From sequence record MH051915: DNA of 64,000 bases; one strand, written 5' to 3'. This document shows positions 4,477-50,197 of this stretch, in pieces. Numbering within the stretch: position 1 is the first letter of the stretch; the number at the start of each line of letters is the position of its first letter. The notes beneath the pieces were generated by a model. That model saw only the letters and a program-made list of their open reading frames with translations. It did no database searches and was not told where the DNA came from. Source of the DNA: Enterobacteria phage vB_EcoM_IME339. The translations under genes and the position numbers were made by a program.

Positions 4477-4893
4477 ATGACTCGTATTAATTTGACTTTA
4501 GTATCTGAACTTGCTGATCAACATTTAATCGCAGAATACCGTGAACTGCCGCGTGTTTTTGGTATAGTTCGTAAACATGTTGCAAATGGTAAACGGGTTA
4601 AAGATTTTAAAATATCTTCCGAGTTTATTTTAGGTTCTGGTCATGTTACGTTCTTTTATGATAAGTTAGAATTTTTGCGAAAGCGTCAATCAGACATTAT
4701 AACGGAATGCTTAAAACGTGGGTTTAGTATAAAAGATACTGAAGTTCCTGACATCAGCGATATTCCAGCAGAATGGAAAAATGATTATAATCCATGCAAA
4801 TCAGCTATTAAGTTGAGTCAACAACGACTCGATGAAAAAATTTTAATGAAGCCACACTGGTATAAATACTACGGTAAAAATATTTACATTTAA
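4477..4893 (+). CDS. denV: endonuclease V (pyrimidine dimer glycosylase)
   Basis: 138 aa, [28 protein letters not shown]; strong similarity to recalled T4 DenV. Confidence 0.93.
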
Positions 4894-4902
4894 AGGAAAC
4901 AC

Positions 4903-5376
4903 ATGAAAACATATCAAGAATTTATCACTGAAGCAGCTATTAATTCTCAAATTATTGCTGAATCTTTTACTGATCTTTTGAAATTTAAAAAAGGTCAAAA
5001 AATCACTGCTGTATTGGATGATGGTACAGAAGTTGAGATGGATGTACAGGGATATAATTATGCAGTAGATGGAAAACTGTATAATAAATCTCACGCTAAA
5101 TTTGATTCATTTGACGACTTTGTTAATACAGTTGAAGATGAAAAAACTCGTAGATCAATTTCAACTGGCGATGCTAAGGTTCTTATGGCGCACGGCCATG
5201 AACGTATCCGCGCCAAACAGAATAAAATGGGTGAAGATAATTTTGCATTAGTTGGTTATCAATCTGGTAAGCAAACTTATGGCTATCAGCGTACTGCTAC
5301 CATGTATAACAAAAATGGTAAAATCGCTTTCGTGAATAGCAAAGGCTCTATTCAGTACGTCAAATCATTCAAATAA
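4903..5376 (+). CDS. internal protein with capsid-targeting N-terminus (IPII/IPIII-like)
   Basis: Starts MKTYQEFITEA, the CTS motif of T4 internal proteins; basic 157-aa body. Lies after denV rather than between e and denV. Confidence 0.7.
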   Translation: MKTYQEFITEAAINSQIIAESFTDLLKFKKGQKITAVLDDGTEVEMDVQGYNYAVDGKLYNKSHAKFDSFDDFVNTVEDEKTRRSISTGDAKVLMAHGHERIRAKQNKMGEDNFALVGYQSGKQTYGYQRTATMYNKNGKIAFVNSKGSIQYVKSFK

Positions 5377-46987: not shown

Positions 46988-47016
46988 TTTACAAGCTGAC
47001 AAGACTATGGTATAGT
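46987..47016 (+). promoter_or_regulatory. early promoter with inverted repeat over -10
   Basis: GTTTAC, 18 nt, TATAGT inside 'gacaagactatggtatagtagtcttgt'. Confidence 0.55.
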
Positions 47017-47474: not shown

Positions 47475-47504
47475 GTTTACAAGCTGATAGAGTTGTGTTA
47501 TAGT
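47475..47504 (+). promoter_or_regulatory. early promoter with inverted repeat over -10
   Basis: GTTTAC, 18 nt, TATAGT; 'gctgatagag...ctatcagc'. Confidence 0.5.
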
Positions 47505-47535: not shown

Positions 47536-47790
47536 ATGATGCTAGTTAATAGAGAATATCAGTTTAAATCAGAAGAAGATTTGGAAAAATTCGCGAGTGG
47601 TTGTGAACTGAATAGACGCACAGCTAAAGTCATAGGATTAAAACCCTTTACAGTTCTAGATTGTGAAGTTTCTAAATTCCGCAGAGGGTGTTCTATTAGC
47701 GGTCATGCTCTGGTTGATGGGAACACATTTTTCTTTGTTTTTAGCGTCAGAGAACTTTTATTGATTAACGAACTTGAGGAAATAAAATAG
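47536..47790 (+). CDS. hypothetical protein (84 aa)
   Basis: ORF track. Confidence 0.5.
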   Translation: MMLVNREYQFKSEEDLEKFASGCELNRRTAKVIGLKPFTVLDCEVSKFRRGCSISGHALVDGNTFFFVFSVRELLLINELEEIK

Positions 47791-48446: not shown

Positions 48447-48803
48447 ATGTATAGTTCTGAATTTTCATATTTAAAAATGGAAAAAATTTCATACGATTTT
48501 ATAGATGAAAAGGTTTATTACAGTTTCCATGAACCATGTTTTAATAGTGAGGTCGGGTTTATTGTAGTAAAAGACAATTTCATTTTAAAAATATATTCGG
48601 CATTAAAGGATTTTCACTACGAAAATATTAACCTAAAATTTGACAAAGAAAACGTTCGTAATTGCGCAGTAACAATTACAGGAAATAAAGGTACATGCGT
48701 TATGCTATCTGATGAAATTAATGATTTGTTAAATGATGCCGAAAAGGTTGCTATTCCATCGATTGATGACCAAATTTTTAATGCTTTTATGAATAGAGGT
48801 TAA
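48447..48803 (+). CDS. hypothetical protein (118 aa; 61.2 position)
   Basis: ORF track. Confidence 0.5.
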   Translation: MYSSEFSYLKMEKISYDFIDEKVYYSFHEPCFNSEVGFIVVKDNFILKIYSALKDFHYENINLKFDKENVRNCAVTITGNKGTCVMLSDEINDLLNDAEKVAIPSIDDQIFNAFMNRG

Positions 48804-48804
48804 T

Positions 48805-48970
48805 GTGAAAACATATAAAGAATTTATCAAAGAAGATATGGTAGCTGGAGATTCGGGTGGTAATCCTGAAAATATCTCCACTGGAACAACATCAGGCGCT
48901 GTAGTAAATAAAGGTCCTGAACAGATTCCTAAAAAGAAAAAAGAGGAATCTAAAGAAAAAGAAGAGTAAA
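48805..48970 (+). CDS. small protein (54 aa) with capsid-targeting-like N-terminus
   Basis: Hand-translated, GTG start: (M)KTYKEFIKEDMVAGDSGGNPEN...KKKKEESKEKEE; N-terminus resembles MKTYQEFI CTS. Confidence 0.4.
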
Positions 48971-48971
48971 A

Positions 48972-50000
48972 ATGTCATCAATACCTTGGATTGATAATGA
49001 GTTTGCATATCGTGCATTAGCTCATTTACCTAAATTCACACAAGTAAATAATAGTTCAACTTTTAAATTACGGTTTAGATGCCCCGTTTGCGGAGATTCA
49101 AAAACCGACCAAAATAAAGCCCGTGGATGGTATTACGGCGATAATAATGAAGGAAATATTCATTGTTATAACTGTAACTATCATGCACCAATCGGAATAT
49201 ATTTAAAGGAGTTTGAACCCGATTTATATCGTGAGTATATCTTTGAAATAAGAAAAGAAAAAGGTAAAAGTCGTCCAGTAGAAAAACTTAAAGAACTTCC
49301 TAAACAACCTGAGAAGAAAATAATTAAATCTCTTCCGTCATGCGTTAGATTAGATAAACTGGCGGAAGACCATCCAATTATAAAATATGTAAAAGCTCGC
49401 TGTATTCCAAAGGATAAATGGAAATATCTTTGGTTTACAACCGAATGGCCTAAATTAGTTAATAGCATAGCACCAGGAACATACAAAAAGGAAATACCTG
49501 AGCCTCGTCTTGTTATTCCAATTTATAATGCTAATGGAAAAGCTGAGTCTTTTCAAGGACGTGCATTAAAGAAAGATGCTCCTCAAAAATATATCACCAT
49601 CAAAGCTTATCCTGAGGCAACAAAAATTTATGGAGTTGAACGAGTCAAAGATGGTGATGTATATGTTCTAGAAGGACCCATAGATTCACTTTTTATTGAA
49701 AATGGTATAGCTATTACGGGTGGTCAATTAGACCTAGAAATTGTTCCATTTAAAGATAGACGTGTGTGGGTTTTAGATAATGAACCTCGTCATCCTGACA
49801 CTATTAAACGAATGACTAAATTAGTTGATGCAGGAGAAAGGGTTATGTTTTGGGACAAATCTCCCTGGAAATCAAAAGATGTTAATGATATGATTAGAAA
49901 GGAAGGTGCAACCCCTGAACAAATTATGGAATATATGAAAAATAATATTGCTCAAGGGTTGATGGCTAAAATGCGGCTATCTAAATATGCTAAGATTTAA
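48972..50000 (+). CDS. 61: DNA primase gp61
   Basis: 342 aa; zinc-ribbon CPVCGDSK...CYNC; Toprim core. Confidence 0.95.
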   Translation: MSSIPWIDNEFAYRALAHLPKFTQVNNSSTFKLRFRCPVCGDSKTDQNKARGWYYGDNNEGNIHCYNCNYHAPIGIYLKEFEPDLYREYIFEIRKEKGKSRPVEKLKELPKQPEKKIIKSLPSCVRLDKLAEDHPIIKYVKARCIPKDKWKYLWFTTEWPKLVNSIAPGTYKKEIPEPRLVIPIYNANGKAESFQGRALKKDAPQKYITIKAYPEATKIYGVERVKDGDVYVLEGPIDSLFIENGIAITGGQLDLEIVPFKDRRVWVLDNEPRHPDTIKRMTKLVDAGERVMFWDKSPWKSKDVNDMIRKEGATPEQIMEYMKNNIAQGLMAKMRLSKYAKI

Positions 50001-50197
50001 ATTAACCCAACCAAAGCAAATGCTAAATCTACGAATGTATCAAGAGTAATTACTGGAATACTAACGCCATGAGCAATAGCAACTGGCGATAAAACAAAAT
50101 TCCAAAGTAAAATTCCTATCATAGCAGAAATAGTAAAAGCTATACGTTTTTTATTACCTTTTATGGCATTAACAAGTGCCATTAATTTTTGTACCAT
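49997..50197 (-). CDS. small hydrophobic membrane protein (66 aa), antisense-oriented
   Basis: Only ORF in the 61-56 intergenic gap; GGAGGA SD 5-10 nt upstream on minus strand. Confidence 0.45.
   Translation of the reverse strand: MVQKLMALVNAIKGNKKRIAFTISAMIGILLWNFVLSPVAIAHGVSIPVITLDTFVDLAFALVGLI

Follow-up and report, generated by a model that had tools for sequence, protein, structure and literature searches.

[quoted passage not shown] The protein is tripartite. A decapeptide that resembles the capsid-targeting sequence (CTS) of internal head proteins and is the counterpart of the C-terminal ten residues of the gp23 propeptide is followed by a copy of the N-fist and N-arm start of gp23* and by a basic to charged tail. 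Judged from its sequence, the head-assembly machinery probably acts on gp61.1. Among the specific roles considered here the best supported one, held tentatively, is that of a protein directed to the prohead and cut there by the gp21 protease, ranking above a cytoplasmic mimic of gp23 and a role in replication.

The gene has been annotated before, and its similarity to the capsid protein has been flagged by automated pipelines. In the literature gene 61.1 and gp61.1 were found in genome tables only, and no paper on function was found. Here we present the anatomy of 61.1, for which, as for its function, no earlier description was found, together with a comparison of the short and long forms of the family, the probable expression of the gene and an evaluation of its possible roles.

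Gene 61.1 and its neighborhood

The window analyzed, a stretch of 64,000 nucleotides, is a Tequatrovirus (T4-type) segment with about 98% identity to phage PP01. The GTG-initiated ORF of 54 codons just upstream of the primase gene, from which the original prediction started, was confirmed (Table 1), and the same ORF carries the label 61.1, as 'hypothetical protein', in the annotation of PP01 and of T4. Close relatives have ATG at the position of the GTG start codon. With T4 gp61.1 the protein shares 52 of 54 residues; the profile phrog_1823 matches it over residues 1-54 (E 7e-34), and phrog_2086 matches it through the C-terminus of the phrog_2086 profile (E 2.6e-16). Scans of short and long 61.1 forms against Pfam and NCBIfam returned no family, and no Rfam family was matched anywhere in the window.

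The identical protein is encoded on more than 1000 contigs, and relatives of 61.1 are present in about 1500 phage records. Pairwise dN/dS values among 13 short-form genes from different lineages range from 0.07 to 0.3, with synonymous sites near saturation, and the short forms have kept a length of 51-64 aa as well as the Shine-Dalgarno sequence and the start codon. These values and the conservation identify 61.1 as a real coding gene and not a chance ORF, and the conservation in related phages proposed as a check in the original prediction was thus found.

The genes around 61.1 are tightly packed. The stop codon TAA of gene 61.2 (48801..48803) falls between the Shine-Dalgarno sequence and the start of 61.1, with one base separating TAA from GTG, and the stop codon of 61.1 is followed after 2 nt by the ATG of the primase gene 61. 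The A/G-rich coding sequence of the 61.1 tail doubles as the translation-initiation region of gene 61. An A-run (48931..48943, plus strand), which codes for KKKK in the basic cluster of 61.1, is frameshifted in a T6-type variant of 62 aa (P0002). The new tail of this variant (KKKKRNLKKKKSKNVINTLD; proteins P0002 and P0004) is still basic and overlaps the primase start, so that the tail of 61.1 seems free to vary provided that its basic character stays.

The gene order is 41, dmd, 61.4, two small ORFs, sp, 61.2, 61.1, 61, 56. Between 61.4 and sp an 84-aa ORF (47536..47790, plus strand) gives a PHROG match to goF, an mRNA metabolism modulator (E 3e-20); T4 is without a goF-like ORF at this position. 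Gene 61.2 encodes 118 aa, compared to 208 aa in T4, and matches the C-terminal part of the anti-DarT factor AdfA only, so that the anti-DarT factor of this phage may be a truncated or an alternative one. A hydrophobic ORF of 66 aa on the minus strand (49997..50197; phrog_2024, E 2e-30) is located between the primase gene and gene 56; it is unannotated in the PP01 record and contains a terminator-like hairpin (50163..50182) within its 5' end.

Table 1. Features of the gene 61.1 region and of the comparator internal protein gene, with coordinates in the window
Feature	Position	Strand	Description
Internal virion protein, 157 aa (comparator)	4903..5376	+	phrog_3155; canonical CTS MKTYQEFITE
Early-promoter-like site	46988..47016	+	near-identical to the site at 47476
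Early-promoter-like site	47476..47504	+	TTTACA-17-TATAGT with TG; nearest high-scoring site upstream (10/12, TG-extended)
Gene 61.2, 118 aa	48447..48803	+	truncated homologue of AdfA (anti-DarT factor); Pfam PF23813 positions 129-211 of 211
TATGAATA	48788..48795	+	7/8 match to the late-promoter box TATAAATA, at -17 to 61.1; probably inactive
Shine-Dalgarno GAGG	48796..48799	+	5 nt before the 61.1 start; read from the sequence; context shared with relatives
Gene 61.1	48805..48969	+	54 codons plus stop, GTG start; ORF list, PP01/T4 annotation, phrog_1823
Codons 1-10, (M)KTYKEFIKE	48805..48834	+	CTS-like, ends in gp21-type I-K-E
Codons 11-36, DMVAGDSGGNPENISTGTTSGAVVNK	48835..48912	+	copy of the gp23* N-fist (gp23 66-91), 12/26 identical
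Codons 37-46, GPEQIPKKKK	48913..48942	+	aligns with the gp23* N-arm start (GPAVMGMVRR); basic cluster conserved in the family
Codons 47-54, EESKEKEE, plus stop	48943..48969	+	charged tail, variable among homologues
DNA primase gene 61	48972..50000	+	phrog_47, E 1e-106; annotation

The CTS-like decapeptide and the copy of the gp23 maturation junction

The N-terminal decapeptide of gp61.1 resembles the CTS of the internal protein encoded at 4903, as had been claimed from the sequence alone; the two agree in 8 of 10 residues and in 26 of 30 nt. The late promoter TATAAATA is found at 4861..4868, upstream of the internal protein gene. In a six-frame search of the window just these two decapeptides reached at least 7 of 9 matches (positions 2-10), and 200 dinucleotide-preserving shuffles delivered a mean of 0.01 matching decapeptides, which speaks against the chance similarity in AT-rich sequence considered in the original prediction. 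According to a review of the work of the Black laboratory, residues 4 and 7 of the CTS serve mainly for targeting and residues 8 and 10 for processing, and gp21 cuts after Glu in L/I-x-E (PMC9026906). All four functionally mapped residues are present in gp61.1 (Y4, F7, I8, E10), and genuine CTSs of phage JS98 likewise contain K5 (MKTYKEFIAE) and K9 (MKTYQEFIKE), so that the CTS resemblance, as a feature of the sequence, is real and beyond chance. The decapeptide ends in the putative prohead-protease motif described before: I8-K9-E10 is the sole L/I-x-E site of gp61.1, and the predicted scissile bond E10|D11 lies between positions 48834 and 48835. Across this junction the uncut protein reads (M)KTYKEFIKEDMVAGD...

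Among the orthologues, Tequatrovirus and several other short forms have preserved the CTS fully or almost so; it has diverged in JS98 and is absent from the long forms. The 61.1 protein of JS98 starts with MKSFKEVMNE, in which three of the four critical residues have changed, and in the same genome five internal-protein-type ORFs retain MKTYxEF[IL]xE. At least five JS98 ORFs starting with MKTY[QNK]EF[IL]xE were counted in 50 kb (L131, 18310..32553); three of them are hypothetical or unannotated, so that the candidate set of internal proteins is larger than the JS98 annotation shows.

In BLASTP against PP01 gp23, residues 2-38 of gp61.1 were placed on gp23 57-93 without gaps (43% identity, E 1e-8). 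Comparison of the short-form profile with a profile of gp23 N-termini by hhalign gave a probability of 97.9% (E 4.4e-13; 61.1 residues 2-46 on gp23 57-101). When the short-form profile was searched against all PDB sequences, T4 gp23 was the sole match (E 4e-8), with D11 of gp61.1 aligned to residue 1 of the mature gp23* chains. The gp21 protease removes the first 65 residues of gp23 (PMC9546572); since codons 1-10 of 61.1 align on gp23 56-65, the predicted cut I-K-E|D sits exactly on the real cut L-T-E|A of gp23 (E65|A66).

Beyond the cut follows the part of gp61.1 that corresponds to the N-fist of gp23*, i.e. residues 66-91 (PMC7136217), and to the start of the N-arm. Common to gp61.1 and gp23 are the motifs GD.G, NI..G.TSGAV and GP. 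Residues 11-38 form the best conserved block of the 61.1 family, in which M12, A14, G15, D16, G19, I24, G27, T29, G31, G37 and P38 are invariant. The portion behind the decapeptide had been described as low-complexity and highly charged; this applies to residues 39-54 or thereabouts, but not to residues 11-38, which are the most conserved ones and homologous to gp23.

In the unexpanded head gp23 residues 66-105 lie inside the shell and are thought to contact the scaffold core (PMC9546572). The N-fist/N-arm segment of gp23* is disordered in the unexpanded head; upon expansion it shifts to the outer side, where its binding partners are four neighboring subunits and Soc. With 54 aa and no Pfam or NCBIfam match, gp61.1 has no HK97-fold body (P and A domains, about 450 residues) and therefore cannot be a capsid subunit. 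The 'major capsid protein' labels on gene 61.1 in some records are misnomers stemming from the N-terminal similarity. The Gol/Lit region of gp23 is presumably located downstream of the stretch aligned with 61.1.

Residues 56-65 of gp23 (AQAFGSFLTE), the CTS (MKTYQEFIAE-type) and residues 1-10 of gp24 (MAKINELLRE) have hydrophobic residues at positions 4, 7 and 8 and Glu10 in common. The occurrence of a CTS-type start and gp23-type sequence in one protein, 61.1, would be compatible with the speculation that the CTS arose from the capsid protein propeptide. A co-variation test of 61.1 against gp23 of the same genome, which has low power, revealed two common lineage-specific residues in KP27 only; the signal is weak because the N-fist of gp23 is almost invariant. 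The gp23 N-fist of KP27 (L008, L050) differs from that of T4 at several positions (IAGD, TKIASG, TNIGP), and the KP27 61.1 module carries two of these lineage-specific states (EKIASG, TNIGP), which hints at gene conversion or co-evolution of 61.1 and gp23.

Short and long forms of the 61.1 family

Short forms of 51-64 aa occur in T4-, JS98- and RB49-type phages and in some Aeromonas phages. Long forms of about 145-165 aa, which represent phrog_2086 and the related phrog_18642, occur in Acinetobacter phages, KVP40-type phages, Klebsiella phage KP27, CC31, S16-type phages and many others. The C-terminal 45 or so residues of the long forms are the gp23-like module with the same L-x-E before the core, and some of them, e.g. 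P0073, share about 73% identity with gp23 66-93. The residue before the core (P1) is Glu in 116 of 128 members, short and long forms together, and the residue two positions before it (P3) is L, I, M or V in 118; a hydrophobic-x-Glu site precedes the core in about 92% of these 128 relatives. In agreement with the gp21 motif L/I-x-E, this conservation marks a site of protease type, equivalent in position to the gp23 cut, as a trait of the 61.1 family.

The long forms are without CTS; in the 61.1 of the window the CTS-like start of ten residues stands in the place of their N-domain. In an AF2 model of a long form the N-domain of about 105 residues is confidently helical, and the gp23-like module is predicted to be disordered. 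The N-domain has no Pfam family, and a fold search of the AF2 model against PDB gave no match. The BFVD fold search with the long-form model delivered uncharacterized phage proteins only, among which those of 672 and 913 aa were weak matches. Occurring in at least 1953 representative clusters, the N-domain is a large uncharacterized phage family near the primase gene. In the loci L003, L004, L005 and L008 (proteins P0018-P0286) it is found with varied C-terminal extensions of up to 470 aa. Avoidance of L/I-x-E, which would be a sign of exposure to gp21, was not found in the long-form N-domains (1.9 observed versus 0.9 expected).

The place between helicase gene 41 and primase gene 61 is common to the window and seven other phages (six genera). 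Several phages have one or two small ORFs between 61.1 and the primase gene, in a pelagiphage the 41-61 position is only loosely kept, and in marine T4-like phages the N-domain gene is found about 3 kb upstream of the primase gene. Pelagibacter phage HTVC008M (L132, 4959..6038) encodes, two ORFs downstream of its N-domain gene, a 359-aa ORF that starts with MKTFTDF..., contains EDIANVAGDGAVSMPPTARKVVKKKK and recalls the layout of the short 61.1. Two further ideas on the family were rejected. Gene 61.2 is not the detached N-domain of a long 61.1, to which it has no similarity; it is an AdfA fragment. The idea that the marine relatives mimic the differing gp23 N-terminus of their own phages was dropped on account of a non-significant hhalign probability of 0.4%.

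Expression and possible roles of gp61.1

No exact late promoter TATAAATA is present between genes 41 and 61 of the window. The TATGAATA box upstream of 61.1 is probably inactive, and T4 likewise has only the degenerate TATGAATA at this place. In several other lineages an exact or position-1-variant TATAAATA is located 20-32 nt upstream of 61.1 (background of the exact box, 8e-5 per position), which hints at late transcription of 61.1 in those phages; some of the exact boxes are so near to the 61.1 ATG that the leader would be very short. Of the two early-promoter-like sites of the window, the one at 46988 precedes dmd and the one at 47476 precedes the goF-like ORF, and both look like starts of early transcripts covering 61.1. 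Since no terminator-like site was found downstream of the 47476 site before the hairpin at 50163..50182, 61.1 is probably on an early transcript with the order goF-like ORF - ORF - sp - 61.2 - 61.1 - 61. The 61.1 RNA of T4 has been assigned to the early class, and a time-resolved infection proteome did not reveal the protein (PMC9697503 supplement). The text and supplements of one T4 head mass-spectrometry paper do not contain gp61.1, and CRISPRi-ART knock-down of T4 61.1 caused no fitness defect (PMC11879866 supplement).

With the CTS-bearing internal proteins gp61.1 has in common the decapeptide of the form MKTYxEF[IL]xE, including the aromatic residue 4, Phe7, Ile/Leu8 and Glu10. It differs from them by a cargo of just 44 residues that is capsid-protein-like, by a gene that belongs to the early helicase-primase cluster and in this phage has no late promoter, and by an N-terminus that is not a CTS in all orthologues. 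The maturation junction of gp23 (65-residue propeptide, E65|A66, N-fist 66-91, N-arm start) is matched in an ungapped alignment with a coincident predicted cut, whereas the HK97-fold body is missing. The long forms share the module, the L-x-E and the 41-61 place, and add the helical N-domain. Propeptides of the gp21 substrates Alt, gp24 and gp21 itself are short terminal segments bounded by L/I-x-E and removed in the prohead (PMC9026906); by comparison the gp23-like module of the long forms would be a C-terminal propeptide. The prohead core proteins gp22, gp67 and gp68, which gp21 degrades, are encoded elsewhere, in the head cluster 20-67-68-21-22-23, whereas 61.1 belongs to the replication cluster.

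The CTS-like start, the cleavage-type site superimposed on that of gp23 and the copy of a scaffold-facing segment lead us to propose, tentatively, that gp61.1 enters the prohead and is cut after E10. It would join the scaffolding core of the prohead, as internal proteins and the N-terminal region of gp23 do, would be enclosed in the prohead and would then be cut by gp21 after Glu10 (I-K-E|D). The product would be an N-fist-like peptide of 44 residues with no further L/I-x-E site, which might either stay in the head or exit with the scaffold fragments. In the long forms (about 155 aa) the module, C-terminal behind the helical domain, would be cut at the equivalent site. In favor of this role are the CTS match with its four mapped residues, the P1/P3 positions conserved in both forms, the gp23 homology and the scaffold-facing position of the segment copied, the predicted disorder of the module, as expected of a propeptide or arm, the TATAAATA-type boxes of several lineages and the neutral knock-down, which is as for dispensable internal proteins. 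Against it are the early RNA of T4 61.1, the undetected protein and its absence from the head mass-spectrometry paper, the degenerate TATGAATA as the only box in the window and in T4, and the location of the gene, which in every lineage examined is the early helicase-primase cluster and never a locus of head or internal proteins. The loss of the CTS in JS98, the long forms without CTS and the lack of L/I-x-E depletion in the N-domains also count against it.

An early transcript would fit a gp61.1 that acts in the cytoplasm as a mimic of the nascent gp23 N-terminus and occupies a gp23-binding factor, a role that we regard as unlikely. Its target might be a chaperone route, the not yet assembled scaffold or protease, or an immune sensor of the host that responds to capsid protein, with the effect of a tuned handling of capsid protein or of a blunted capsid-triggered abortive infection. 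The homology spans the whole N-fist, far beyond the needs of a protease site, and reaches the high identity with gp23 of P0073 and others; gp23 and 61.1 of KP27 have lineage-specific residues in common; the neighbors dmd, 61.4, sp and the AdfA-like 61.2 are anti-defense genes; gp23 is a known trigger of defense systems such as CmdTAC; and 61.1 is dispensable on the laboratory host. However, no binding partner is known, nor a defense system that reads gp23 residues 57-101, the co-variation signal is weak, and the conserved P3/P1 site of protease type and the CTS-like start would be left without a role. Rather unlikely in our view is a wider proposal, in which gp61.1 and the long forms would make up a conserved and hitherto overlooked class of small phage proteins that mimic the capsid N-terminus, either capsid-immunity decoys or timing regulators of the prohead protease and scaffold, and in which the ten C-terminal residues of the capsid propeptide might have given rise to the CTS, 61.1 being the form that connects the two.

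The place of 61.1 in the early operon, with its stop codon 2 nt before the primase ATG and its tail serving as the primase initiation region, would also fit an accessory of the replication module, be it as a protein or through its mere translation, with the likeness to gp23 as a historical accident. Translational coupling to gene 61 or binding of the charged tail to helicase or primase would be possible routes, and the 41-61 position is kept from T4 to KVP40-type, Acinetobacter, Aeromonas and Klebsiella phages and, loosely, in a pelagiphage. This explanation is improbable: it is drawn from position alone, and T4-like phages conserve the gene order of the replication module by descent. Selection acts on the N-fist-like core, whereas the primase-adjacent tail is the most variable part; the one or two ORFs that part 61.1 from the primase gene in several phages do not fit, and the gp23 similarity (E 4e-13) and the conserved cleavage-type site are left unexplained. 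Highly improbable is a chance ORF or decaying remnant with a CTS-like start derived from AT-rich sequence and no functional product. The small size of the ORF, the protein undetected in one proteome and the knock-down without fitness effect would agree with a remnant, but the dN/dS of 0.07-0.3 at saturated synonymous change rules out a remnant devoid of function, and the preserved length, Shine-Dalgarno sequence and start codon, the number of phage records with a relative and the shuffle control are against it as well. The probability left over belongs to functions outside the readings considered. The prohead-directed substrate of gp21 is retained as the best supported proposal.

The head assembly of T4 is a textbook system, yet 61.1 is without an assigned function in the papers found. 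The database labels 'major capsid protein' on 61.1 need to be corrected: the gene encodes a free-standing copy of the maturation junction of the capsid protein, conserved across T4-like phages. An anonymous ORF is thereby turned into a specific and testable hypothesis on the recognition of proteins by the scaffold and the prohead protease. A possible evolutionary link is indicated between the propeptide of the capsid protein and the CTS, which today serves for packaging foreign proteins in T4 heads. Should the mimic instead be active in the cytoplasm, it could represent a countermeasure of a novel kind against immunity that is triggered by the capsid.
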